Shown here: positions 3,080-61,674 of the stretch, one piece after another | How the letters are laid out: every line of letters starts with the position of its first letter | Position numbering within the stretch: position 1 is the first letter of the stretch | Assembly: GCA_965206675.1 (NCBI GenBank) | Contig: CBDBKL010000007.1 | Span: 226,338-290,337, forward strand | From: Bdellovibrionales bacterium | GTDB lineage: Bacteria > Bdellovibrionota > Bdellovibrionia > Bdellovibrionales > JAKFYE01 | Direction of reading: 5' to 3' | Length of the DNA stretch: 64,000 bases | Program-made: the position numbers and the translations under genes | The notes under the pieces: generated by a model | Database searches by the model: none | What the model was told of the DNA's origin: nothing | The model's input: only the letters and a program-made list of their open reading frames with translations

Positions 3080-4027
3080 CTAGAAACCCAATAAGACAAA
3101 AGCTAAAATATTTCCCACAGCCAATAGGATGGATAATAGTTTTTTTGTTTTTTTGGGACCTATAGATTTAAGGTCTTCATTTGTAATTTGATTTAAAGAA
3201 ATATTTTCGGGATCTAGAGAGCTAGTTTTTATAAGCCTTTCTTTTTCTTTTGGAAAAGATATAAGAGTATGTTTTTTTAATAACTTAATGTCTTTTGCTT
3301 GGTTGATTTTTAAGACGCCTATTTTATCTTTGATTTTCATGATTTGTCCTTTTGCAAGGATATTGATTCTGGAACCCCCTTGGTAGAGGGGTTTTGAGTT
3401 TATTCTTTGAATTTCTATCCATTGTACAGGATCATTTTTTTTAACGTGTTGAAGGTGACGGATATCGGCTTTGGATAATCTTACCTCTCCTTCATCATAA
3501 ATAGTTTTCCCAATAAGTGGATCTAGAATTTGAAATGTTTGAAAAGGGATAGAAGCTAAAAAATCATCAACAAGTTTATTTAGAGAGGGTTTTAAATTTG
3601 ATGGGTTGAGTTTTGAAGAGAGTAGTAGAATATTTTGAGTCCAGAGTAGTTGACCATCATTTTTGAAATAAACTTTCATTGTTAGTTTTTTCTTCTTTAA
3701 ATGTGTTCTGATTATGATATCGGCGTTTAATTTTTCTGAAATTAAAATAACTTTTGAAGGTTTTAATTTATAAGAAGCAGATATGTTTTGTTTTGTGATC
3801 TCTTCCAAAGGGAGTATTGAAAATCTTCCATTCTCATCTAATCTTTCTTTTATATTTTTCCTTATCAAATTAGATAGAGATTTATATTTTGTTTTTATCA
3901 CGGGAGGTAAAATAGCTACTTTTTTTATTGAGTGGATATTCGCTGAAGATTTAAAGCTAATAAATAATATTAAAGATAGGCTTAGAAAGCCTACAGTTCT
4001 TTTTAAGAATTGAAATAAAGGGCCCAT
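3080..4027 (-). CDS. hypothetical exported/membrane protein
   Basis: Long ORF with an N-terminal signal-like helix and a C-terminal TM helix. No family recognised. Confidence 0.5.
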   Translation of the reverse strand: MGPLFQFLKRTVGFLSLSLILFISFKSSANIHSIKKVAILPPVIKTKYKSLSNLIRKNIKERLDENGRFSILPLEEITKQNISASYKLKPSKVILISEKLNADIIIRTHLKKKKLTMKVYFKNDGQLLWTQNILLLSSKLNPSNLKPSLNKLVDDFLASIPFQTFQILDPLIGKTIYDEGEVRLSKADIRHLQHVKKNDPVQWIEIQRINSKPLYQGGSRINILAKGQIMKIKDKIGVLKINQAKDIKLLKKHTLISFPKEKERLIKTSSLDPENISLNQITNEDLKSIGPKKTKKLLSILLAVGNILAFVLLGF

Positions 4028-5958: not shown

Positions 5959-6019
5959 TCCTTATTTTACAATAAAAAAGCATTTTATAAAGATATATGT
6001 AATAACTCATATTTTACTC

Positions 6020-6179
6020 GTTTTGAAATATCTGAGAGAGAGCATTTCTAAAGGATTTCAAAACGCAGTTCTCTAAAGCGCAGGGCGTATCCTCGAAGAG
6101 GAGACGAGCCTGCGGCCTTTAGAGCTGTTTGAGGATTTGGAAGCCTTTAGAAATGCTCTCTCTCAAAGACGTTCAAAAA
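6020..6179 (-). repeat. Family-2 rod-hairpin repeat, copy 2A (core inverted relative to 2B/2C)
   Basis: Perfect 22-bp outer arms at 6033-6054 and 6144-6165. Inner core GCGCAGGGCGTATCCTCGAAGAGGAGACGAGCCTGCG is homologous to the reverse complement of the 53.8-kb and 61.6-kb cores. Confidence 0.85.
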
Positions 6180-6326
6180 CTTTTGTAAGACTATCTGTAC
6201 TCTTGGGTATGCCTCAATCGCTCCTTATTAGTTTTTATCAAAATCTACGCAAATAGAGTTAGCCTTCGATTTTTTTAGCGATATGACAAATATATATTAT
6301 GAACGATAAAGAGAAAAGACGTCTCT

Positions 6327-15639: not shown

Positions 15640-15741
15640 GATTCGTATAAAGGAGGACTGTCGAAAAGGTATCAGATACGAGGCGTTCAAGCTCAAACCG
15701 AACGCAGGCGTAGTTTTTCCTACGTCGGAGTGAGTGTTTGA
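15638..15741 (+). repeat. Family-1 repeat, copy 1a (3'-truncated, lacks closing arm)
   Basis: TTGATTCGTATAAAGGAGGACTGTCGAAAAGGTATCAGATACGAGGCGTTCAAGCTCAAACCGAACGCAGGCGTAGTTTTTCCTACGTCGGAGTGAGTGTTTGA aligns to 1c. Confidence 0.85.
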
Positions 15742-15845
15742 TTTGTATTAGGAGGACTGTTGAAAAAGTGCCAGATACGAGGCGTTCAAGTTCAAATCGA
15801 ATGAAGGCGTAGTTTTTCCTACGTCGGAATGAGCTTTAATTGATT
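15738..15845 (+). repeat. Family-1 repeat, copy 1b (3'-truncated, more diverged)
   Basis: Joined to 1a through TTTGATT microhomology. Same block order, several substitutions. Confidence 0.8.
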
Positions 15846-15868
15846 ATAATAAAGTCGATGGAATTTTC

Positions 15869-16010
15869 TTGACTCGTATTAGGAGGACTGTCGAAAAGGT
15901 ATCAGATACGAGGCGTTCAAGCTCAAACCGAACGTAGGCGTAGTTTTCCTACGTCGGAGTGAGTGTTTGAGTGATTGCAACGAAGTAGATGATACCTTTT
16001 CGACAGTCCT
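15869..16010 (+). repeat. Family-1 repeat, copy 1c (complete; reference copy)
   Basis: Perfect 21-bp outer arms at 15884-15904 and 15990-16010 (AGGACTGTCGAAAAGGTATCA). Central hairpin GGCGTAG-TTTTC-CTACGTC. Confidence 0.9.
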
Positions 16011-22729: not shown

Positions 22730-23155
22730 ATGGAACGGACAACTTTAAATTCTACAAAAGATCTTTGTCATTGGACTGAAAAATTCATAAATCGCTTAGG
22801 AACTAAGGATCTTATATTATTATCTGGGCCCATGGGAGTGGGGAAATCGGAATTTGTTAAATCGTGTTTAAAGTTATGGGATGTGGAAAATACGTGCTCA
22901 CCAACTTTTGCTATTCATAATATATATACAACGTCTCATAAGGGTGTTGTTGATCATATAGATTTATATAGATTAGAAAGCGAGACAGATTTAGAGTCTA
23001 CAGGTTTTTGGGATATCTTTGAAAAACCAAAAGGTACTGTTTTTATAGAATGGGCTGATCGGTTAAAAGTTAACTGGTCCCCTCAAGAATGGACTGTTTG
23101 GAATATAAGCCTTGAGTTTTTAAACGGAGATAAAAGAACTTTGACTTTAAGTTAG
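22730..23155 (+). CDS. tsaE: tRNA t6A37 biosynthesis ATPase TsaE
   Basis: GPMGVGKSEF P-loop, SPTFAI motif, ~140 aa. Confidence 0.85.
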   Translation: MERTTLNSTKDLCHWTEKFINRLGTKDLILLSGPMGVGKSEFVKSCLKLWDVENTCSPTFAIHNIYTTSHKGVVDHIDLYRLESETDLESTGFWDIFEKPKGTVFIEWADRLKVNWSPQEWTVWNISLEFLNGDKRTLTLS

Positions 23156-23283
23156 AATCTATCCCAACTTTGTGATGAAAACGAGTGAGAGGTAAGGATA
23201 AAGCAAAAAAGGCGTGCTTGGGGTACCATTGAGAGTGTTTTTTAATCGGGTGCCATCGCTGTCGTTGGTTTTGGGATGAGTTC
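23155..23283 (+). repeat. Family-3 repeat, copy 3b (complete; reference copy)
   Basis: Imperfect terminal inverted repeats GAATCTATCCCAAC...GGTTTTGGGATGAGTTC. Fills the convergent gap between tsaE and the 23289 gene. Confidence 0.8.
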
Positions 23284-36935: not shown

Positions 36936-36949
36936 GCAATCAAACTTTC

Positions 36950-37086
36950 TTGATTCGTATTAGGGGGACTGTCGAAAAGGTGTTAGCTACGAGGCGTACA
37001 AACCGAACGAAGGCGTAGTTTTTCCTACGTCGGAGTGAAGGTTTGAGTGATTGCAACGAAGTAGATGACACCTTTTCAACAGTCCT
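36950..37086 (+). repeat. Family-1 repeat, copy 1d (complete, short-core subfamily)
   Basis: Same architecture as 1c, with GAGGCGTACAAACCG in place of GAGGCGTTCAAGCTCAAACCG. Fills the convergent gap der/OMP and ends 2 nt from the OMP stop. Confidence 0.88.
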
Positions 37087-40711: not shown

Positions 40712-40812
40712 TTGACTGTGTTGCAATTGTTTTTACTCCGACGTAGGAAAAACTACGCCTCCATTCGTTTTGTACGCCTTGTATCTAACATTTTTTCAGC
40801 AACCTTCTTATA
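40712..40812 (-). repeat. Family-1 repeat, copy 1e (inverted, degenerate, no closing arm)
   Basis: The reverse complement reads ATAAGAAGGTTGCTGAAAAAATGTTAGATACAAGGCGTACAAAACGAATGGAGGCGTAGTTTTTCCTACGTCGGAG... Confidence 0.75.
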
Positions 40813-41044
40813 TAGACATTAATTATTAAAATGTAGAAAAAGCTAATCTGCTAAGGAAAGTCTAGCCCTTCTTTTTAATATAGGAAGATATGGCTAATGA
40901 AAAATTGTGTTTGAGACACGAGACACTAATGCTTCAAAAGGATATCATTCTCTAAAATCTGAAATTTCGATGAGCTTTAACATAAAAGTTTTAGATTTTA
41001 GAAATTAAATTTCACACCTATTTTTAATAACTTAGCCTCAAGTC

Positions 41045-41073
41045 TTGACAAACTACTAGTTTTTATGTAGTTT
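41045..41073 (+). promoter_or_regulatory. candidate TA promoter with overlapping operator palindrome
   Basis: TTGACA (41045-41050), 17-nt spacer, TAGTTT (41068-41073). 13-bp perfect palindrome AAACTACTAGTTT (41050-41062) plus a third TAGTTT half-site. Confidence 0.5.
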
Positions 41074-41087
41074 AGAGAGAGGCAGGG

Positions 41088-41414
41088 ATGGCGGTTAAAA
41101 AAATAGATTACTATGTTACTGAAAATGGCAAGGAACCCTTCCTTGAGTGGGTTAATAGTTTGGACATTGCTAGTCAGATTAGGGTTGACCGTTTTATCCA
41201 AAGAGTTGCTCAAGGCGGTGCTAAAAAGTCGATTAGAAGTTTAAAGAATGGTGTTTTTGAAATTAAAATTCCTCATGGATCTGGATTGAGAATATATTTT
41301 GGAGAAGTTGGAAACAAGTACATTCTTCTTTTAGTTGGTGGAGATAAAGGAACTCAAAGTAAGGACATTAAAAGAGCTAAAGAATATTGGAGTAATTATG
41401 GCAAACAGAAATAA
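41088..41414 (+). CDS. higB: type II toxin, RelE/HigB-like 'addiction module killer' family
   Basis: ~108 aa. The YVTENGKEPFLEW...GVFEIKI..GLRIYF pattern is typical of the TIGR02683-type toxin. Toxin-first order and a 17-nt overlap with the antitoxin. Confidence 0.8.
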   Translation: MAVKKIDYYVTENGKEPFLEWVNSLDIASQIRVDRFIQRVAQGGAKKSIRSLKNGVFEIKIPHGSGLRIYFGEVGNKYILLLVGGDKGTQSKDIKRAKEYWSNYGKQK

Positions 41415-41712
41415 AAGCTATGATGAAGTATTAGCAAGCAAATTTGAAAATCTTAAGTTTGCTCAAGGTTATTTGCTTAATATAGTTAAAAACGAAGGAC
41501 TTTCTATTGATGAAGCACTTTGCGAAACGATCAAGGCAATGGGGTTACAAAATTTTGCTGATAAATCTGATCTCTCTATCCAGGGAGTTTCGGACTTTGT
41601 TGCAAAAAGGCAGAAATGGAGTACAGATAAACTTTCGAAGCTCATTAACGAAGTCTTTAAGTTAAAAGTTAAACTGATTTTAGAAGTTCCAAAATCAAGC
41701 GAGGTCGCTTGA
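41398..41712 (+). CDS. higA: HTH antitoxin, HigA-like 'addiction module antidote' family
   Basis: ATG 41398 (MANRNKSYDEV...). ~104 aa with an HTH-like centre. Paired with the upstream toxin. Track start 41335 lies inside the toxin gene. Confidence 0.75.
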   Translation: MANRNKSYDEVLASKFENLKFAQGYLLNIVKNEGLSIDEALCETIKAMGLQNFADKSDLSIQGVSDFVAKRQKWSTDKLSKLINEVFKLKVKLILEVPKSSEVA

Positions 41713-42014
41713 ACTAGAATTTCTATATTATTATATTTAATCATAAATTTATTTTGTTTTTTATTCTTATTCTTATTGAGGAACAAAGGAGGTGGTAAAT
41801 ATATCAATAGTTATTAGTTGTACTCATGGAAAAAAACTGGAAAAAGGATATTAGAAATGCTCTGTAAAAATATTACCCCATCTTTTGTCTGGATAGCTAT
41901 TGGAAAAAATTCTCTCCTAGATATTCAATTTTTTTTCCAGAGCGCAGAGCGTATCGTGAGAAAGAGCAAGTTAATAATCAAACATAAAAGAGAAAATCGC
42001 ATAAAGAGCCAGAC

Positions 42015-42132
42015 GGACTTTTCAAAAAGCGTTAGATACGAGGCGTTCAAGCTCAAACCGAACGGTTTTTCCTACGTTGGAGTGAAGGTTTGAGTGATTA
42101 CAACGAAGTAGATGACGCTTTTTGAAAAGTCC
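42015..42132 (+). repeat. Family-1 repeat, copy 1f (complete arms with compensated sequence; central hairpin partly deleted)
   Basis: Arms CGGACTTTTCAAAAAGCGT / ACGCTTTTTGAAAAGTCCG form a perfect 19 bp. The core GATACGAGGCGTTCAAGCTCAAACCGAACG is conserved. Confidence 0.85.
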
Positions 42133-42183
42133 GCAGATACAATTAGTTGATTGTATAGCGGAGTTTATGTAACCATATAGGGT

Positions 42184-46178: not shown

Positions 46179-47097
46179 AGTGTTAAAAGAAAAATTGATC
46201 TCGGGCTTAAAAATTTGGAATCAATTTTGGTTTTTACCTAAAGGGACATTTACAGGCTCTTTATTTCGTTGTCTTGTCACATTTTTCATTTTTGTTTTTT
46301 ATTTTTCTCGTATCTTAGAATTTGAATTGTATTTTAGTGAATCTGGAATGCTACCATATAGTGCATTACAGGATATAGTTCCCCGTTTCTATCAAACTAT
46401 TTTTCCAATTTATCCATCTACGGAAGGGCTTCTTTTTTCCTACCATATATTATTTCTTTTTCTTCTTATTTTAATGATTCTTGGGTTAGGAGGTAGAGTT
46501 ATTGCCGTGTTGGCATTCTGTCTTCATATGATGTTTTTTCACCGTAATTATATGATTTTATATGGAGTTGATTTTATATCTAGTATAGCACTTTTTATGT
46601 GTATCTTTTTGAAAACAGATAATTATTTTACTGTGCTTAATTTTTTCAAAAAGAAAAAACAAATTCCCCATGGAGGAAAAGATTTAAAAGGTGATCTGTT
46701 ACATTCCGTAGGTTGTCGTTTACTACAACTTCAAATTATGTCTGTTTATGCCTATAGTGGTATGGAAAAACTCAGAGGAGCTACTTGGTGGCAGGGAGAT
46801 GCTATTTGGAATACGCTTGCCAATGGGCAATTAGCTAAGATTAATTTTAGTTTTTTAGCACATGTACCTTTAGTTTTAGTTCTTCTTACTTTCTTTACAG
46901 TTTTATGGGAACTGTATTTTCCTATATTAGTTTGGATTCCTAGAATTAAATATTGGATTTTAGGTCTTGGAGTGGTTTTTCATTTAGGAATTGGTTTTAT
47001 GATTAATATTCCATATTTTTCTATTTTAATGGTATTGAGTTATCTTATTTACTTAGATTATGATCGAGATCTCAGACAATGGTATAAAATATCATGA
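46135..47097 (+). CDS. HTTM-domain (vitamin K-dependent gamma-carboxylase-like) membrane protein
   Basis: Polytopic. LAFCLHMMFFHRNYMILYGVDF-type HTTM core. The start could be 46150 or 46162. Confidence 0.6.
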   Translation: MKIVEMFLKMKGLFKVLKEKLISGLKIWNQFWFLPKGTFTGSLFRCLVTFFIFVFYFSRILEFELYFSESGMLPYSALQDIVPRFYQTIFPIYPSTEGLLFSYHILFLFLLILMILGLGGRVIAVLAFCLHMMFFHRNYMILYGVDFISSIALFMCIFLKTDNYFTVLNFFKKKKQIPHGGKDLKGDLLHSVGCRLLQLQIMSVYAYSGMEKLRGATWWQGDAIWNTLANGQLAKINFSFLAHVPLVLVLLTFFTVLWELYFPILVWIPRIKYWILGLGVVFHLGIGFMINIPYFSILMVLSYLIYLDYDRDLRQWYKIS

Positions 47098-47997
47098 TTT
47101 TTTAATAAGATCAGTGAGTGCTTTATCGAGTTGAGGGTATTTGAATTGATATCCTGTATCTACTGCTTTTTGAGGTAAAACTTTTTGTCCTTTTAAGAGA
47201 AGAGATTCTCCCATTTCTCCTAAAGAGAGTTTTAAAATCCAAGATGGAATACTGAGAAAACTTGGACGCTGTACGATTTTTCCCAATTTTTTTGTAAAAT
47301 CCTTATTTCTAACAGGGTGTGGAGCTGTGGCATTTATGGAGCCTTCAACACTTTCATTATAAATAATATGTTCAAAGAGGCCAATAAGATCATCAATATG
47401 AATCCATGACATCCATTGTTTTCCTTTTCCTATAGAGCTTCCAAGATAGAATTTAAAAGAAGGGAGTATTTGGGTTAATAGGCCTCCATTTGAATCAAGC
47501 ACCAACCCTGTACGTATACAGCAAATACGGGTATTTTCTGCTTTATAAGCTGTTTTTTCCCATATATCACATAACGTATGAGTAAAGCTATTATCATTGG
47601 GCTCTGAAGTTTCTATAAATTCTTTATCATCATCATTTCCATAGTATCCTATGGCCGAACTGCTAATAAAAAGTTGCGGTTTTTTCTTTTTATTATTGAT
47701 GTAACTAACAAGTTTTTCTGTTATTTTCACTCGGCTTTCAAAAATGCTATTTTTCTTTTGCTGAGTCCAGCGTCCATTGGCAATAGATTCACCAGCTAGA
47801 TTAATAATAACATCGTAATCTTCTATAGCATGATTCAGGGAATCTATTGATTGAGCTTTACGTATTAAGGGATTATTAGATTTTTTTATATTGCGGGTGA
47901 GAATTGTAACTTGATGATTTTTTTTAATGAATTTTTCGGTTAGTCGAGAGCCGATAAAACCAGTACCACCAGTTATTAGAAAATGCATTATGGACAT
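47092..47997 (-). CDS. TIGR01777/YfcH-type NAD-dependent epimerase-family protein
   Basis: ITGGTGFIGSRL Rossmann motif and a DUF1731-like C-terminus. Confidence 0.8.
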   Translation of the reverse strand: MSIMHFLITGGTGFIGSRLTEKFIKKNHQVTILTRNIKKSNNPLIRKAQSIDSLNHAIEDYDVIINLAGESIANGRWTQQKKNSIFESRVKITEKLVSYINNKKKKPQLFISSSAIGYYGNDDDKEFIETSEPNDNSFTHTLCDIWEKTAYKAENTRICCIRTGLVLDSNGGLLTQILPSFKFYLGSSIGKGKQWMSWIHIDDLIGLFEHIIYNESVEGSINATAPHPVRNKDFTKKLGKIVQRPSFLSIPSWILKLSLGEMGESLLLKGQKVLPQKAVDTGYQFKYPQLDKALTDLIKKS

Positions 47998-48133
47998 CCT
48001 TTTTCAAAATTGCTTTCTATTTGTAGATTCTATCAAATATTTAAATTGTCAATAAAAGAAGATTATTTTATATAAAAAAATATATCTATTTTTTTATATA
48101 AAATAACAATATTTTCTGATAAGAATAAAAAAT

Positions 48134-48961
48134 ATGACACTAAAGCTTTTAAGATTTTTACCCAAAAAGTTAATAAGCTATTTTGTGGGTCGAGTTGTAC
48201 ATTTTCGTTTTCCAAATCCTATAGGACCTCTGAGTGTTAAATGGTTTGCTAAAAAGTATAAAATAAACCTAGAAGAGGCAGAAAAAAATCTCGATGACTA
48301 TAAGACCATTGGAGCTCTATTTACACGAAAATTAAAGCCGGGGGTCAGAACTATAGAAGATAGGGCCATTCATCCCTCTGACTCTCTATTAACTGAAAAT
48401 GGTCCTATTAGAGGCAAAACCCTTATTCAAGCCAAGTCTCATTTTTATAATACATCTGAATTTCTGGGAAACTCAGAATGGGGAGATCTTTTTAATGAGG
48501 GTGTATTTTTAACTTATTATCTTTGCCCCAGTGATTATCATCGTGTTCATTGCCCTATAAATGGGGAAGTTATGGCGGCTCGGTATATTTCTGGAACCCT
48601 TTGGCCTGTTAACGAATATAGTGTTAAAATGACTTCTAATCTATTTAGTATAAATGAGCGTTTTATAACCTTAATCAGGTCAAATTTAGAGTATGTTGCC
48701 GTTGTAATGGTAGGAGCTTTGAATGTTGGCTATATGACATCCAGTTATGATTCTGATTTTGTGTTGAAAGCAAAGCGGAAAAAAACTATTAATAAAACCT
48801 ATGAGCCTAAAAAGCCTATTAAACGGGGAGATGAGTTAGGTATATTCCACATGGGTAGTACAGTTATTGTTCTTTACTCAAAAGAAACTGAAGTCGCAAA
48901 GAATTATGAGGGTTTTGAGCATCGAACCGTACGATGGGGTGAAAGTTTGTTTGTAAAATAG
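48134..48961 (+). CDS. psd: phosphatidylserine decarboxylase proenzyme
   Basis: PSDYHRVH motif and FHMGSTV self-cleavage site. Confidence 0.9.
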   Translation: MTLKLLRFLPKKLISYFVGRVVHFRFPNPIGPLSVKWFAKKYKINLEEAEKNLDDYKTIGALFTRKLKPGVRTIEDRAIHPSDSLLTENGPIRGKTLIQAKSHFYNTSEFLGNSEWGDLFNEGVFLTYYLCPSDYHRVHCPINGEVMAARYISGTLWPVNEYSVKMTSNLFSINERFITLIRSNLEYVAVVMVGALNVGYMTSSYDSDFVLKAKRKKTINKTYEPKKPIKRGDELGIFHMGSTVIVLYSKETEVAKNYEGFEHRTVRWGESLFVK

Positions 48962-48988
48962 GATGATTTTCACATAGAATAAAATATT

Positions 48989-50053
48989 ATGAAAAAAACA
49001 ATAGCTTTAATTATGGGTGGAGAATCAGCGGAACATAATATTTCTTTAATTTCCGCTAAGAATATCTATCTAGGGGCAAATCAAGATCGTTTTAAAATTA
49101 TACCTATTGGCATCTCAAAAACTGGCGAATGGTATCTTATTACAAATATCTCCCTTTTTAAATCATTAGACACTTATGATGGTTTTGATATTTCCAAACA
49201 TGGAGATCCTATCTCTCTTATAAGGAAAGGTAGCCAGATTTTTGTAATGAGGTTAGAAACACAGGGGGTTGTTACAGCACTAGATGGAGCTTTTCCAATT
49301 GTTCATGGGCATAAGGGAGAAGATGGAAATTTACAGGGTTTTTTAGAAACCCTTGGATTACCCTATGTTGGAGCGGATACTTTAAGTTCTGCTATAGCTA
49401 TGGATAAGGACGTTATGAAAAGATTATTGTCTACCACTGATGGAATAAGAGTTCCATCTTTTCATGTCATTCAAAAGGGAGAGGAAACTTCTTATAAGGA
49501 AATATCTCAGAAATTAGGTGAAACTCTTTTTATAAAACCTTGTAATTCAGGATCTTCTATTGGTATAAATTGTGTTTCAAATGAAGAGGAATTTTCCAAA
49601 GCTTGCACTGAGGCTTTTAGATATGACTCCAAAGTTATATTAGAATCTTTTGTAAAGGGTAGGGAGATGGAGATCTCCATTTTAGGAACAGCAAAGCCAA
49701 GGATATCTCTGCCTGGTGAGATTGTTGTTTCAGGAACTTATTATGATTATGAGTCAAAATATCTAAAAAACACAGATTTAAGTATTCCCGCTAAGGTAAC
49801 GGAAGAGGAAAAAACTGAACTTCAAAATGCAGCTCTTAAAGCCTACAAAAGTCTTTGTATCAAAGGAATGGCTCGTGTGGATCTTTTTTTAAAATCAAAT
49901 GGTGAAGTTCTTGTTAATGAAATCAATACTCTTCCAGGATTTACACCCATCAGCATGTATCCAAAATTATGGGTTATATCAGGACTCAGTTATAAGGATC
50001 TTATAACTGAGCTTATTGATGAGTCTTTAAATCGAAATAGTAATTTTAAATAA
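48989..50053 (+). CDS. ddl: D-alanine--D-alanine ligase
   Basis: ATP-grasp fold. EHNISLIS, HGHKGEDGNLQG and NEINTLPGFT motifs. Confidence 0.93.
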   Translation: MKKTIALIMGGESAEHNISLISAKNIYLGANQDRFKIIPIGISKTGEWYLITNISLFKSLDTYDGFDISKHGDPISLIRKGSQIFVMRLETQGVVTALDGAFPIVHGHKGEDGNLQGFLETLGLPYVGADTLSSAIAMDKDVMKRLLSTTDGIRVPSFHVIQKGEETSYKEISQKLGETLFIKPCNSGSSIGINCVSNEEEFSKACTEAFRYDSKVILESFVKGREMEISILGTAKPRISLPGEIVVSGTYYDYESKYLKNTDLSIPAKVTEEEKTELQNAALKAYKSLCIKGMARVDLFLKSNGEVLVNEINTLPGFTPISMYPKLWVISGLSYKDLITELIDESLNRNSNFK

Positions 50054-50161
50054 TCCATTGCCCTCTATAAATTAAGTCAAACTAAAGAATTTTTGATAGA
50101 CTTTTCGGTTTCTTTATATTACTTCTAGTGTCTCATTGTTGTTTAGCTATTTTTAAAGGGG

Positions 50162-51244
50162 ATGGAATCTATGAAAATAGAAGAATCTATTTTTTATCGT
50201 GAAACTAAATATGTTAAAACAACAAACCTAAAATCTTTGTGTCTTTCAATACTATTATCAATATTTTTAACATCTTGTGGTGGCCAAAATGGAAGTATGG
50301 CCTATGACAAATTGAGAGTATTAGATAGAGAATGTGAATATCCACTCGATGCAGGAGAAGATATTACAGATTTTACATTTTCTGAAGAAGCCATAGAGGA
50401 AGGTCCTTTTGGAAGACCGTACAATACAGATTTTTTAGAAAAGATATCTAAAGCTTCTACACGAGCCACTTTAAATTTTGCTCATGCTTTAGGCATTAAA
50501 ACTGTAAAAGTAGGGGAATCAGATTCAAAATGTCAGTTGTTTTATTTTTTAGAAAAAGCCAGGGGAGAAAGTTTAAAGACTTGGACGACTATTGTAGATG
50601 GTGGGAGGAATCCAGCAGGTTTATATTTTTCCATAAATAGCTCTAGATCACTTCTACCTGTTGAACCTACAATTATTCTAAGGGTTGATTCTAACCGTCA
50701 GACATTAGTCCACGAATTAATGCATTATAATTTTCACAGGACCAAGACTTCAATGGCAAAAATTAATCAATGGGAACTAGAACATAATTATTCTTTAAGA
50801 AGGGAAGATCTTAACGTCAATCTTCAAGCCTATTTACAAAATAAAAATTCGGAAAACTTTGAAATTCTTGTAGAATCTATGACATCTGTCGTGTCTATTT
50901 TAGAAGAGTACTTATTGGAGGGAAGAGACAGTATGCTTGAAGAAGTTAGCATTGAATATATTCTTATAAAATCTTATCTAGAAGGCGAGTTGGAGTATGT
51001 TCCTGATAGTGTATGGGGTACCTATTCCTATATGTCTGGGAATGCCAATCTTTTATTAAGGACTTTTGTTGATCCAATAAAAAATATTATATCAACGCTC
51101 ATTAAAGATGCTGAGGTTTATTGGGAGCATAGGGAGCATATTCAAAGCTTATCTGAAGAAATTAACCGTTTTACATCTAGACTTCAAAATGTTTTAAATC
51201 AGGCAGAAAAGAGTATGAATTTGAAAAAGTGGGTTGGGGAATAA
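50162..51244 (+). CDS. lipoprotein with HExxH motif (putative metallopeptidase)
   Basis: Lipobox LTSC and a VHELMHYNF motif. No family recognised. Confidence 0.5.
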   Translation: MESMKIEESIFYRETKYVKTTNLKSLCLSILLSIFLTSCGGQNGSMAYDKLRVLDRECEYPLDAGEDITDFTFSEEAIEEGPFGRPYNTDFLEKISKASTRATLNFAHALGIKTVKVGESDSKCQLFYFLEKARGESLKTWTTIVDGGRNPAGLYFSINSSRSLLPVEPTIILRVDSNRQTLVHELMHYNFHRTKTSMAKINQWELEHNYSLRREDLNVNLQAYLQNKNSENFEILVESMTSVVSILEEYLLEGRDSMLEEVSIEYILIKSYLEGELEYVPDSVWGTYSYMSGNANLLLRTFVDPIKNIISTLIKDAEVYWEHREHIQSLSEEINRFTSRLQNVLNQAEKSMNLKKWVGE

Positions 51245-51245
51245 A

Positions 51246-51953
51246 TTATATTAAACCCTGATCTACTAAATCAGAGATATGGTATTCTTTGTTTTTTAAT
51301 TCCTGTTTAATTCTATTAATCTCTAAAACTCCATGAAGATAAGTTTCTCGTCCTAACACACAAGTACTCAATTTCAGGGAAGCCCCCTTTTCTTTGATAT
51401 CAATTTGGTGGTAGGCGTGACCTTCTAGAAATTCATCTGGTATTTTATATTCGTGCTTTTGCAAATGAGGATCTCTAATACTTTTAATATTTTTTTTATC
51501 AATAGAGAGAAAATTTGCTAAATTTATGGCTGTTTGAGGGACGGTATTTTTGCTCTTCTGGTGGCTTTCTATAATTGTGGAATTTTTAAAAAGATATCCT
51601 GATTTGCGAAGCATTGTCATAAATTTAATTATGGGAAGAGACAGATTTGGAGCTTCTATATAGGGAAAGTTCAGAGCACTTGGCAGTCGAGGTTCTTGAC
51701 CGCTTGACCCTTGAATAAGAAGAGTTTGATGTTCTTGGCAAAATGTAATGGCTTCCTGTAATTGTCTACCAGATCCGATATGAAGAAGTATCTTTGAAGT
51801 TTTGTGAGATAAAATGTCTTCTTGTTTATTTATGTTATTAAAAGAGATTGGAATTAGTCGTGTGTTGTATTCTTTGTCAGAAGTAGACTCAATTTTATCA
51901 AAAAAGCATTTTGCAAGCTGACCCTTTCCTACAATAATAACATATTCAGGCAT
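51246..51953 (-). CDS. divergent dihydrodipicolinate reductase (DapB)-family protein
   Basis: N-terminal Rossmann-like VIIVGKGQL. IIESHQKSKNTVPQTAINLA aligns by eye to DapB E-HH--K-DAPSGTA, but several signature residues are changed. Confidence 0.45.
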   Translation of the reverse strand: MPEYVIIVGKGQLAKCFFDKIESTSDKEYNTRLIPISFNNINKQEDILSHKTSKILLHIGSGRQLQEAITFCQEHQTLLIQGSSGQEPRLPSALNFPYIEAPNLSLPIIKFMTMLRKSGYLFKNSTIIESHQKSKNTVPQTAINLANFLSIDKKNIKSIRDPHLQKHEYKIPDEFLEGHAYHQIDIKEKGASLKLSTCVLGRETYLHGVLEINRIKQELKNKEYHISDLVDQGLI

Positions 51954-52005: not shown

Positions 52006-52081
52006 TGGCATCCCCTACGGGAGTCGAACCCGTGTCTTCACCGTGAAAGGGTGATGTCCTAGGCCACTAGACGAAGGGGAC
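52006..52081 (-). tRNA. tRNA-Glu (anticodon UUC), CCA encoded
   Basis: The reverse complement GTCCCCTTCGTCTAGTGGCCTAGGACATCACCCTTTCACGGTGAAGACACGGGTTCGACTCCCGTAGGGGATGCCA folds as a cloverleaf. Anticodon loop CTTTCAC. Confidence 0.95.
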
Positions 52082-52098
52082 AGTTCCTTATAATAAAG

Positions 52099-52176
52099 TG
52101 GTGAGCCGCCTTGGACTCGAACCAAGGACCCTCTCCTTAAAAGGGAGATGCTCTAACCAAACTGAGCTAGCGGCCC
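52099..52176 (-). tRNA. tRNA-Lys (anticodon UUU), CCA encoded
   Basis: The reverse complement GGGCCGCTAGCTCAGTTTGGTTAGAGCATCTCCCTTTTAAGGAGAGGGTCCTTGGTTCGAGTCCAAGGCGGCTCACCA folds as a cloverleaf. Anticodon loop CTTTTAA, 10-nt D-loop. Confidence 0.95.
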
Positions 52177-52229: not shown

Positions 52230-52232
52230 TAA

Positions 52233-52361
52233 GAGCCTATCCAAACTTGGTGATGAAAAAGAGCGAGAGCAAGGATGAAAGTAAAAAAGCCGTGCTGGGG
52301 ACATATTTTGGGGATATTTTTTAACTGGTGTAATCATCATCGTTGGTTTTGGGATAGGTTC
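52233..52361 (+). repeat. Family-3 repeat, copy 3c (complete)
   Basis: GAGCCTATCCAAACTTGGTGATGAAAAAGAGCGAGAGCAAGGATGAAAG...GGTGTAATCATCATCGTTGGTTTTGGGATAGGTTC. Lies between the purA stop and tRNA-Lys. Confidence 0.8.
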
Positions 52362-53709: not shown

Positions 53710-53757
53710 TTAATGAGTGTGTCAATACCTAAGATTTTATAATTTTAGAACATTACA

Positions 53758-53949
53758 AAGGGAGTTTTTTTCAGAGGGGTTCAAAAGCTCAGACAGTTCT
53801 GAGGGTTCGCAGCTCGTCTCTCCGCCAAAGGTTAAAACAGTAACTAGATAAAATTTGATTCAGTTAAACTTAAGAAAAACGGTTTCTAGCGGAGATACGC
53901 CCTGCGCCTCAGAAAACTCGTTTTGAACCCCTCTGAAAAAAACTCCCTT
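53758..53949 (+). repeat. Family-2 rod-hairpin repeat, copy 2B (with 63-nt apical insertion at 53826-53888)
   Basis: Perfect 29-bp outer arms AAGGGAGTTTTTTTCAGAGGGGTTCAAAA and its reverse complement. Core identical to 2C up to the apex. Confidence 0.88.
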
Positions 53950-53979
53950 CTTAACGCAAAAAAGAAAAATGGAACTTCC

Positions 53980-54115
53980 TTAATTCGTATTAGGAGGACT
54001 GTCGAAAAGGTGTCAGATACGAGGCGTACAAACCGAACGAAGGCGTAGTTTTCCTACGTCGGAGTGAAGGTTTGAGTGATTGCAACGAAGTAGATGACAC
54101 CTTTTCAACAATCCT
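53980..54115 (+). repeat. Family-1 repeat, copy 1g (complete, short-core subfamily)
   Basis: Near-identical to 1d. Its right arm (to 54115) contains the last three sense codons and the TGA stop of the 54105-55052 gene. Confidence 0.88.
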
Positions 54116-57827: not shown

Positions 57828-57911
57828 AAGTTATCCCAATTTTGTGATAAAAACGGGCAAGAATGAAAGCCAAAAAGGTGCAATCGCTGTCATTGGTTTT
57901 GGAATAGGCTC
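57828..57911 (+). repeat. Family-3 repeat, copy 3d (short form, internal deletion)
   Basis: AAGTTATCCCAATTTTGTGATAAAAACGGG...GGTGCAATCGCTGTCATTGGTTTTGGAATAGGCTC. Occupies the whole 84-bp convergent gap between holA and rpsT. Confidence 0.8.
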
Positions 57912-58175
57912 TTAAGACAGTTTATGGACAGCAGTGGCTAGACGGCTGATTTTGCGAGAAGCTTTATTGGAATGAAAACATTTCTTTTGGGCTGCTTTTC
58001 CCATTTTAGAGGTTAATCTGTGAAAGAGGTTATCTGCTGTTTTTTTATCTTTGTCAGTAAGGGCTTTTTGAAGCTTTTTTTCAATAGTTCGTACCTCAGC
58101 TATGAGCCTGTGATTTATTTTTTGACGCTTTAGGTTCTGACGAGCACGTTTTTCTGCTGATTTATGATTTGCCAA
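57912..58175 (-). CDS. rpsT: 30S ribosomal protein S20
   Basis: MANHKSAEKRARQ N-terminus, 87 aa, basic. Confidence 0.95.
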   Translation of the reverse strand: MANHKSAEKRARQNLKRQKINHRLIAEVRTIEKKLQKALTDKDKKTADNLFHRLTSKMGKAAQKKCFHSNKASRKISRLATAVHKLS

Positions 58176-59869: not shown

Positions 59870-61135
59870 TTATCTGTCACCTATGAATAGAGAATATCTT
59901 CTTCCAGAGGGATCTAAATAGGACCTCAACCATTCAATAGAAGGAGAATCGGGTTTAACATGTGCCCCAGCCAGGTCATAAACCAACTGATCTGGGGTTA
60001 ACTGTAATTCAACACTTTTAACCAAGCCCATCTCAAATCGAGCTAAAAGATCGGCAATATAACTTTTAACTTTCTCTAGTTCTGTTTTATTCATATCAAG
60101 TGATTTTCTCAAATCAGTTAGAGTGTTTATGTGATAAGAAGGTGGTGATTCATTAATTGGGTCTAGTAGTTTTTCTGTGCGTAGGATAAAAGCTAATATT
60201 AATTGTGCATTCCTCAAATAACCGATAAGGTGTTCATCTCTTGAAGTGTTATAAACTGCTGGTATAGCACTTTGAGATAAACTATGGGGTAGTACGTTTG
60301 AAATATAATTAACTATATCCAAAAAGTGTTTAAATTTTTGATGTACCAAATCTCTTTCAACAGCACCTTGTCTTAATACAAATTGACTCTCATTGGCTAT
60401 CCAGTCATTTAATCTCGCGTCTAGTTCTTCAAATGATAAGCTTTGTAAACTATCTTTAAGTTCTTTTAAAGATGTTTGATTATCAAACAGTTCAGGTCGT
60501 AAAGCTCGTAATCTTGTCTCTGAACTCAATCGTCCAAGAGACATAGATTCTAGAATTTGAAATGAACGTTTTGGTATAGGATGGTTATGCTCAGAAGAAT
60601 CCCAATGATTTTTATTCAGATCTTTCTTTTGTTCTTTATAAATAGTTCTTACAGCAATCATAAACTCTGGACGTTGAGTTTGAGGGTCTACTCTTAAGTT
60701 CTCAGTCAAGTGTGCTAAATCATGGAGATAATATAATGCTGCTAAACCTACTGGCATATTGCCTTCTGCAACGAGTGAAACCCATTCGTGATGGAAAAGT
60801 CCAGTTAGTTCAGAAAGTTTCCAATGATGTGCATTAGGAATTTCATCTATTCCTGGGCGAAAGTTTCTTAACTCTCCATTTCTTTCAACTGATTCAAATT
60901 CAATTGATGCATAGATGGCTTCTGAGTTTTTCAATTGTCCATCTTCAATCATTTTTGAGACTCTACGATTATACATCTCCAAAGGAACCAAAAGATTTTC
61001 TGGAGGGATTATTTTTCTACCTTTTATCCTAAACCCCAGTTTTAAAAGAGTTTGGACATGATCGCTGTTAAATTTCTCTTTTTCTAATTTTTGTAACGAT
61101 GCAGACCATAGATTAGTTCCTTTAATTTTTTGCAT
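59870..61135 (-). CDS. hypothetical protein (421 aa, no family recognised)
   Basis: Long ORF with ordinary composition. 14-nt overlap with the upstream lipoprotein gene suggests translational coupling. Confidence 0.6.
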   Translation of the reverse strand: MQKIKGTNLWSASLQKLEKEKFNSDHVQTLLKLGFRIKGRKIIPPENLLVPLEMYNRRVSKMIEDGQLKNSEAIYASIEFESVERNGELRNFRPGIDEIPNAHHWKLSELTGLFHHEWVSLVAEGNMPVGLAALYYLHDLAHLTENLRVDPQTQRPEFMIAVRTIYKEQKKDLNKNHWDSSEHNHPIPKRSFQILESMSLGRLSSETRLRALRPELFDNQTSLKELKDSLQSLSFEELDARLNDWIANESQFVLRQGAVERDLVHQKFKHFLDIVNYISNVLPHSLSQSAIPAVYNTSRDEHLIGYLRNAQLILAFILRTEKLLDPINESPPSYHINTLTDLRKSLDMNKTELEKVKSYIADLLARFEMGLVKSVELQLTPDQLVYDLAGAHVKPDSPSIEWLRSYLDPSGRRYSLFIGDR

Positions 61136-61370: not shown

Positions 61371-61530
61371 AACCCTTTCAAAATGATGAAATAAATAACC
61401 ATAAGCTTTTTCGGAAAAATTGGAGGGAAAATTAAAATAAAAAGGGATAAGGAAGGATTCAGACAGTTTCAAAGGTCACAAGTTCGTCTACCTCACTTTC
61501 ATTCGGTATACGTTCTTGCTTTGAAAACCC

Positions 61531-61674
61531 GAAAGAGAGAACTTTTTTTTTTAAGACTGAAAAAAAGCTCAGACAGTTCTGAGGGTTCGCAGCTCGTCTC
61601 TCCCTTCGGGAGATACGCCCTGCGCCTCAGAAAACTCGTTTTTTACAGTCTTAAAAAAGTTCTCTCTCTCTTTC
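61531..61674 (+). repeat. Family-2 rod-hairpin repeat, copy 2C (reference copy)
   Basis: Outer arms GAAAGAGAGAAC-T10-AAGACTG / CAGTCTT-A6-GTTCTCTCTCTCTTTC. Core GCTCAGACAGTTCTGAGGGTTCGCAGCTCGTCTCTCCCTTCGGGAGATACGCCCTGCGCCTCAGAAAACTCG. Confidence 0.88.

Follow-up and report, generated by a model that had tools for sequence, protein, structure and literature searches.

The DNA analysed here, referred to as the window, is a stretch of 64,000 nucleotides from a Bdellovibrionales bacterium (assembly GCA_965206675.1, contig CBDBKL010000007.1, positions 226,338 to 290,337, forward strand), and carries several long hairpins with a GC-rich centre. These hairpins are real, and the family to which they belong (Family 2) is more extensive than an earlier note on the window had said. 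It is a previously undescribed family of dispersed, non-coding intergenic palindromic repeats, nearest in kind to REPINs (hairpins formed by doublets of repetitive extragenic palindromic sequences, REPs) and to the enterobacterial repetitive intergenic consensus (ERIC). The element consists, from the outside inward, of an outer stem, an asymmetric internal loop of conserved sequence, a short stem, a two-part core and an apex.

The core comprises 27 nt in two parts, YCGCAG(G)CTCGTCT and GATACGCCCTGCGC, and showed no variation in about 25 copies from approximately seven assemblies and metagenome contigs. Its halves pair with each other except for a small internal loop, CT/CC in copy A of the window, and a C.T mismatch that is fixed. 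Although the host genomes are only about 45-60% identical in syntenic protein-coding regions (tblastx segments), the core does not differ among them; it is likewise identical in the nearest complete genome, at 76-83% protein identity. The apex between the halves measures from 8 to 74 nt: 8-12 nt in the short forms and 72-74 nt in the long forms, with about 33 nt in two further subfamilies. Because the apex varies so widely in length while the halves are invariant, only folding unites them, and the unit that is read would be a hairpin and not a contiguous duplex site.

Folding recovered all of the pairings listed in the earlier note (TTCTGAGG/CCTCAGAA; CGCAG/CTGCG; CGTCT/ATACG with the C.T mismatch) as well as its asymmetric loop (GCTCAGACAG versus AAACTCG). 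As single-stranded DNA (ssDNA), copies A and C of the window reached z values of -8.6 to -10.1 against dinucleotide shuffles on either strand, and none of 200 shuffles was as good.

In the earlier note the sequence of the outer stems was said to differ between copies. They are nevertheless not unrelated: they align column by column, mutually and with the copies of OZ220494.1, a complete chromosome of a relative. All short-form copies of OZ220494.1 have GGAAGAGTTTTTCTGAAGGCTTCCAAAAG as outer stem, and the stems of window copies A, B and C are homologous to it (alignment A1). In this alignment 10 of the 34 pairs are changed on both sides, compared with 2.2 in shuffles (0/500 shuffles as high); 98% of the cells are paired, versus 28-56% when the partner is slid; and one-sided changes affect 2 cells versus 14 with double changes. 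About 20 nt on the 5' side of the stem (TTTTTAAGAnnnTAAGT) are also common to the copies. Of the two readings offered in the earlier note, a structured element constrained over its whole rod is supported, as DNA, by the homologous stems and compensated substitutions, which equally leave the other, a mobile core inserted into host hairpins, unsupported for the window copies. The alignment shows the whole rod to be the element, its stems evidently evolving by compensated changes, and on the same grounds the outer stems of the window copies are judged not to be host-derived.

A covariance model (R1) trained on window copies and on copies of a relative was used to scan all 64 kb with filters off. 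The three full copies of the earlier note are all present where it placed them, A and B on the forward strand and C inverted. Copy A (61531-61674, +) is a short form with outer stem, asymmetric internal loop, 8-bp stem, core and an 11-nt apex (TCCCTTCGGGA). The left half of its core (TCGCAGCTCGTCTC, the same in about 25 copies) lies at 61587-61600 (+) and pairs with the right half (GATACGCCCTGCGC) at 61612-61625 (+). Model R1 gave 124.5 bits at 61536-61670 (+), and the ssDNA fold has an energy of -39.6 kcal/mol (z = -8.6). Copy B (53753-53954, +; 75.9 bits at 53779-53928, +) is a long form with core and stems as in A and a 34-nt outer stem that is 94% complementary. Copy C (6005-6183, -; 118.3 bits at 6032-6165, -; ssDNA fold z = -9.5) is a short-form variant, in which the core is made of CCGCAGGCTCGTCTC (6101-6115) and GATACGCCCTGCGC (6078-6091) and the palindrome extends past the main stem through GTTTTTGAA/TTCAAAAC. 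Copies A and B are the same over 41 + 34 nt of core (repeat families D5 and D15); copy C is diverged.

The only difference of copy B from A is a 73-nt insert in the apex (53821-53893, +), arranged as CCGCC-AAGG..-CTAGATAA-hairpin-..AAAAC..GCGG. It is homologous to the long apexes of OZ220494.1, with which it has in common the single-stranded runs CTAGATAA and ATAGAAnAAAC and two small covarying hairpins (alignment A3). This structured insert corrects the description in the earlier note: it marks a recurring long form and is not noise. Given the homology of the apexes, short and long forms are best regarded as alternative modules of one family.

The inventory of three copies was correct as far as it went but incomplete, two further copies having been overlooked. 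Copy D (61453-61531, +) is degenerate and core-only, abuts A on its 5' side, and belongs to repeat family D5 with 61% identity. It scored 21.9 bits (E = 0.013) at 61459-61531 (+), with an ssDNA fold of z = -3.2, and retains CGTCT/ATACG and the loop TCAGACAG; its 8-bp stem, TTTCAAAG/CTTTGAAA, differs from TTCTGAGG/CCTCAGAA of copy A by four double-sided, compensated changes. Copy E (~41930-42010, -) is partial: what is left is the right core half (GATACGCTCTGCGC, 41942-41955) together with a long-form apex remnant. It has no left half and ends where a repeat of another family, Family 1, starts (42011-42133). In all, 4-5 copies occur in 64 kb, each between annotated genes, and GATACGCCCTGCGC at up to 3 mismatches was found 5 times in the window, versus 0.6 expected. 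After A, C and B the next real match of the covariance model was D, and the remaining matches were noise. Scores on the opposite strand were far lower for each copy, so that every copy has a defined polarity.

Distribution, site persistence and replication strand

A scan of 185,579 species genomes with the pattern CTCGTCTC-N(5-35)-GATACGCCCTGCG returned 29 stretches. The real matches were all in metagenome-assembled genomes (MAGs) named 'Bdellovibrionales bacterium'; the others were single matches in unrelated, mostly high-GC genomes, without the other features of the element. The richest source was OZ220494.1, a complete chromosome of 1.82 Mb whose proteins are 76% (MazG), 83% (PurA) and 79% (TpiA) identical to those of the window. 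At least 20 copies were retrieved from 8 of its loci, and a figure of about 100 copies per genome is an extrapolation only. Metagenomes yielded just four more contigs, which define subfamily 3.

The core pattern was not present in viral contigs, and blastn of copy A gave no match to plasmids or phages, nor, with 11-base words, to 5,426 Escherichia coli genomes. Rfam matched only two tRNAs in the window at the gathering score, and the element remained unmatched; at E values up to 10, just generic microRNA-hairpin matches and other chance matches appeared. The core strings were not found in the full-text literature, and nothing was found in the literature on Bdellovibrio repeats. The earlier note had recognised no known family, in agreement with the Rfam, viral, phage, plasmid and E. 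coli searches, and had proposed a search for further copies of the core, which were found in genomes of relatives and, as D and E, in the window. The family appears so far to be limited to one clade of Bdellovibrionales-type genomes that are AT-rich and small in size (~1.8 Mb); the window itself has 32-38% GC. All copies lie between annotated genes, with housekeeping genes as neighbours, and a few palindromes in other MAGs reach from a few to tens of bases into the neighbouring frame.

The window is syntenic with OZ220494.1 along mazG-murJ-holA-lptE-serC-like-2-HADH-purA. Downstream of mazG both genomes are occupied, by A and D in the window and by a variant in OZ220494.1 (locus L035, 6876-7004), and upstream of purA both have a long form: the window has copy B, and OZ220494.1 has a truncated remnant (locus L036, ~3715-3810). 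Within this block of about 20 kb the occupied sites match one to one. Downstream of secG, copy C is present in the window, and OZ220494.1 has a 133-nt spacer without the element. A relative with 94% identity (Logan SRR23258159, L037) carries C at the same secG site, apparently inverted, on a contig that ends inside the element; its left arm, GGATTTCAAAGCGCAGTTCT, matches the complement of the right arm of window copy C. The centre may occasionally flip between the arms. From these comparisons, some sites are long-lived and others have been gained or lost. The elements of loci L014 and L017 were rejected as orthologues of window copies: the flanking genes are syntenic and the element positions are not orthologous.

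Tandem clusters with a period of 137-143 nt occur in OZ220494.1. In each cluster a conserved linker (..TCTCAGTGGCGTAAAT..) joins a full hairpin to a second unit that has no outermost left arm, and long-form units often follow. Subfamilies with different apex modules occur together in one genome.

The replication strand was inferred from local GC skew, which is a proxy, and the coding component was removed by regression (for the window, skew = 0.110 + 0.106 x coding bias; r = 0.83). Once the coding term was removed, the sense strand of the element lay on the inferred leading (G-rich) strand at 13 of 14 informative loci, and an estimate of the skew free of calibration agreed for most loci. All 8 OZ220494.1 loci with intact cores had the sense strand on the inferred leading strand. 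Discordant orientations were those of L035 (a diverged variant), L012 (when estimated without calibration) and, in the window, copies C and E, and, weakly, that of the L036 remnant. Orientation appears to favour one replication strand. The lagging strand is copied from the G-rich strand, which is transiently single-stranded. Elements of the IS200/IS605 type are reportedly oriented with their active strand as the lagging-strand template, as Ton-Hoang and colleagues are said to have described in 2010.

Mechanism and alternative explanations

The explanation that we favour, and to which we give somewhat better than an even chance, is a non-autonomous, REPIN-like element recognised, and probably mobilised, as an ssDNA hairpin by an enzyme. 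The folded core on one particular DNA strand would be the recognition site for this enzyme, acting in trans, and the recognised strand would be on the lagging-strand template during replication. The enzyme would most plausibly be an ssDNA transposase of the HUH/tyrosine type (RAYT, the REP-associated tyrosine transposase, or IS200/IS605 TnpA), and would copy or move the element. The complementarity of the arms would be kept by selection for folding, by template switching within the palindrome during replication, or by both. According to one study, template switching at imperfect inverted repeats makes the repeats more perfect (PMC7202029), and it may be a route to arm complementarity in these elements too.

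Several results speak against mobilisation by such an enzyme. No cognate enzyme was found in the window, whose genes are housekeeping genes and one toxin-antitoxin pair, and tblastn with a RAYT probe gave no match in 348 kb, which is a weak test. Identity of the core across such diverged genomes is unusual for selfish repeats, and a host function would fit it equally. At both shared sites the orientation of the element relative to the gene is reversed between the genomes, which needs independent insertions or an inversion between the arms. The strand bias was obtained from about 20 clusters with GC skew as a proxy, with a binomial p from ~0.008 to 0.08 depending on how ambiguous loci are handled, and the orientations within the window are split 2:2. 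Neither a clean empty site nor exact element ends could be established, and the same holds for a target sequence and a target-site duplication; in 16 copies there were no direct repeats at the boundaries and no conserved termini.

The best of the rival explanations, although in our estimation a rather unlikely one, is a structured RNA, that is, a multi-copy small RNA gene or a cis-acting mRNA element (stabiliser, processing site or terminator). The strong fold, the compensated stems and the conserved unpaired loops would all be expected of it, as would an optional structured domain at the apex, which many RNAs have, and a GC-rich island in an AT-rich genome. Copy A has on its minus strand a weak terminator-like site, a hairpin followed by T7 (61568-61583; CTCAGAACTGTCTGAG then CTTTTTTT), about 120 nt downstream of the mazG stop. 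Copy B has no equivalent, and with this single weak candidate a general role as intrinsic terminator was rejected. Promoter-like sites point the same way, with none at copy A and two consensus matches near B, the number expected by chance. Against an RNA there is also the character of the substitutions: arm mismatches outside the core comprise 12 G.T versus about 18 A.C, with no wobble excess on either strand (as RNA, no excess of G.U over A.C), and the scarcity of one-sided relative to double changes (2 versus 14) tells against it as well. Clusters between co-directional genes are sense in 8 cases and antisense in 7, and the asymmetric core is conserved in both. Rfam gave no match even at E values up to 10; moreover, the element forms tandem arrays, differs in presence among genomes, and has an orientation that tracks the replication strand. 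A DNA rather than an RNA element is favoured, because there is no G.U excess, orientation to genes is random, promoter and terminator signals are few, and orientation follows replication.

A more far-reaching version of recognition as ssDNA, which we consider unlikely, is that the core is the recognition structure of an ssDNA enzyme conserved over an order-level clade, in an element that may be called a 'palindrome keeper'. In such an element a process coupled to replication, with the hairpin as template, would hold arms as long as about 180 bp self-complementary while these arms diverge beyond recognition between copies, and in some lineages it may draw in adjacent host sequence, gene ends included. 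If true, repeats would here evolve in a way undescribed in REPs, REPINs or the miniature transposable elements with inverted repeats called MITEs.

It seems improbable that the elements are non-mobile DNA sites, selected by the host, for a chromosomal protein such as a topoisomerase, a nucleoid protein or a replication or recombination factor. This would account for the identical core across deeply diverged genomes, for the occupation of 2/3 of the window sites in OZ220494.1, one to one in the block of about 20 kb, for the replication-strand bias and for the lack of a nearby transposase. It does not account for tandem amplification with a period of 137-143 nt, nor for the secG site, filled in the lineage of the window and empty in OZ220494.1. 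Truncation and decay are tolerated, as E, D and the L036 remnant show, and subfamilies with different apexes coexist in one genome, which likewise argues against such sites.

The possibility that only the central module of about 70-100 nt is mobile, with arms of local origin (pre-existing hairpins, or flanks duplicated in inverted orientation at insertion), draws on subfamilies 2 and 3 of other MAGs and is in our view quite improbable. The palindromes of these subfamilies measure 166-362 bp, and between most copies no alignment of the arms is possible right to the edge of the module. Arms begin where housekeeping genes end, at the stop codon or a few codons inside it (genes for BacA, MiaA, FtsY, a rhomboid protease and a PspC-domain protein), and host-derived arms were considered because the arms of L007 and L031 overlap gene ends, taking in 22-82 nt of reading frame. 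However, insertions in compact genomes always abut genes, and frames can enter an element by chance. The window arms are homologous to each other and to those of OZ220494.1, and the only arm pairs with detectable similarity (z = 3.5-3.9, the only values above 3), L007/L012 and L007/L021, come from one MAG; L007/L012 is also the pair with the most similar central modules. Arm mismatches cluster at the outer ends and not near the centre, the reverse of what outward growth predicts. Inverted flank duplication or outward palindrome growth was set aside for these two reasons, similarity within one MAG only and outer ends that are the most degenerate. The simpler reading is that the arms of subfamilies 2 and 3 are carried by the element and would evolve about 10x faster than the centre, yet stay complementary.

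Finally, a classical MITE of a DDE-type insertion sequence, moved by cut-and-paste through terminal inverted repeats, would share the inverted-repeat architecture, small size, non-coding nature and multiple copies, but is very improbable, as the termini are the least and the centre the most conserved part, there is no target-site duplication, no relative was found in phage, plasmid or viral collections, and the window is without a transposase.

The family is a new REPIN/ERIC-like system, hosted by a branch of the predatory Bdellovibrionales that is uncultivated and has small genomes, and its short, invariant, folded core could be used as a handle to find the protein that reads it. A centre frozen at about 50% protein identity, with arms about 10x faster yet still paired, would offer a test case for the tolerance or upkeep of palindromes in bacterial chromosomes. 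The repeats could also serve as strain markers.

Other repeats and neighbouring features

The window encodes proteins of the envelope and membrane (FtsH, GlmM, Ddl, MurJ, SecG), of RNA processing and ribosome assembly (RNase III, Era, Der, YbeY), of chromosome segregation (ScpA/B) and of metabolism (TpiA, PurA, MazG). An open reading frame (ORF) of 421 amino acids (59870-61135, -) adjoins copies A and D and belongs to no Pfam or NCBIfam family. It is missing from the mazG-murJ interval of OZ220494.1, and so is either a lineage-specific insertion or was lost in the relative.

Family 1 is a repeat forming a hairpin of about 150 nt (AGGAGGACTGTCGAAAAGGTGTCAGATACGAGGCG...), with copies at 15651-16010 (three tandem units), 36938-37086, 40732-40810 (-), 42011-42133 and 53968-54115, and at 3700-3739 of L034, a contig of a close relative on which the repeat directly follows mazG. 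One end of a copy overlaps the stop codon (54105-54107) of the gene for 2-hydroxyacid dehydrogenase, giving ...Asp-Cys-stop, and in a relative with 94% identity this same end of the repeat gives mazG its Asp-Cys-stop. Since Family 1 supplies gene ends and truncates copy E, it looks recently mobile and seems to land on the ends of genes. Two inverted Family 1 repeats flank, like a small composite mobile unit, a gene-poor stretch (40732-42133) with a RelE/ParE-type toxin gene (41088-41414, TIGR02683) and its probable partner ORF (41335-41712).

A third intergenic repeat, of 130 nt with 72% identity and the core GGTGCAATCGCTGTCGTTGGTTTTGGGAT, occurs at 23154-23283, 52232-52361 and 57877-57913, and one copy adjoins the tRNA-Lys/tRNA-Glu pair (52006-52176). 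The block with a 360-aa ORF, Ddl, phosphatidylserine decarboxylase and an epimerase (47092-51953) is inverted relative to purA in comparison with OZ220494.1 (L036, 5873-9299), with a breakpoint near tRNA genes and repeats. At 48054-48115 there is a hairpin of nearly pure A/T with 29-nt arms, a 4-nt loop and no Family 2 core; long AT-rich hairpins thus exist without the element. In OZ220494.1 a long (GTTTA)n microsatellite (L013, 3370-3500) lies about 100 nt downstream of a long-form element. Short-read contigs of close relatives stop inside repeats, L034 at 3739 in Family 1 and L037 at 9511 in Family 2; these palindromes break assemblies and may be under-represented in MAGs.

Comparison with known systems

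The attC sites of integrons, which are recombination sites folded from a single strand, resemble the element in their variable sequence and conserved structure, in a strand marked by fixed mismatches or extrahelical bases, on which the function of attC depends, and in a terminal structure of a few to about 100 nt. They differ in that RYYYAAC/GTTRRRY boxes are absent from the element boundaries here, no gene cassettes or integrase lie nearby, and the conserved part is central and not basal.

With IS200/IS605 elements and palindrome-associated transposable elements (PATEs) the family shares imperfect hairpins that are, in its own case presumably, recognised on one strand, the lack of terminal inverted repeats of the transposase-binding type and of target-site duplications, and an orientation bias towards the lagging-strand template, here with a small sample and strands assigned by proxy. 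In IS200/IS605 elements two subterminal hairpins stand apart from each other and cleavage occurs at defined tetranucleotides, in contrast to the one long rod without defined ends described here, and no TnpA was found in the sequence searched, by the weak test with a RAYT probe.

REPINs consist of two invariant inverted blocks with a variable spacer, form ssDNA hairpins and commonly show compensatory changes (Bertels and Rainey 2011, PMC3116915), and their clusters are made of units of 5' flank, REPIN and short flank (PMC3116915). A further study describes REPIN-RAYT systems as inherited vertically over very long times (10.1101/2022.05.22.493013). Two conserved inverted blocks, a variable spacer and a hairpin are likewise found here, as are an extragenic, dispersed location in many copies, compensatory changes, tandem clusters of flank, element and flank, and long vertical persistence. 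The sequences are unrelated, however, and the invariant blocks lie beside the apex with the variable part outside, whereas the conserved 16-mers of REPINs are at the ends. The core halves (CGCAGCTCGTCTC and GATACGCCCTGCGC) are not self-complementary and therefore are not short palindromic REPs; a local hairpin, CTCAGA..TCTGAG, is found in the left arm of some copies only, and there is no 5' motif of the GTAG type. The optional structured apex module of 33 or 73 nt, and the identity of the core over a much deeper divergence than is usual for REPs, are further differences. A cognate RAYT gene, in REPIN systems usually present once and flanked by the repeats, was found neither among the window genes nor, by the weak test with a RAYT probe, in 348 kb.

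ERIC, also called intergenic repeat units (IRUs), is reportedly found in Enterobacteria and Vibrio, in accounts attributed to Hulton (1991), Sharples and Lloyd (1990) and Wilson and Sharp (2006). Its copies are imperfect intergenic palindromes of about 125-130 bp in both orientations, some with insertions of about 70 bp at fixed internal positions, and are conserved to an unusually high degree across genera. We know of no reported replication-strand bias or invariant two-part core in ERIC; the sequence is not similar to that of the present family (5,426 E. coli genomes), and the host clade is another. The likeness lies in the length, in long variants with an internal insert, in conservation across genera, and in an intergenic location in both orientations.

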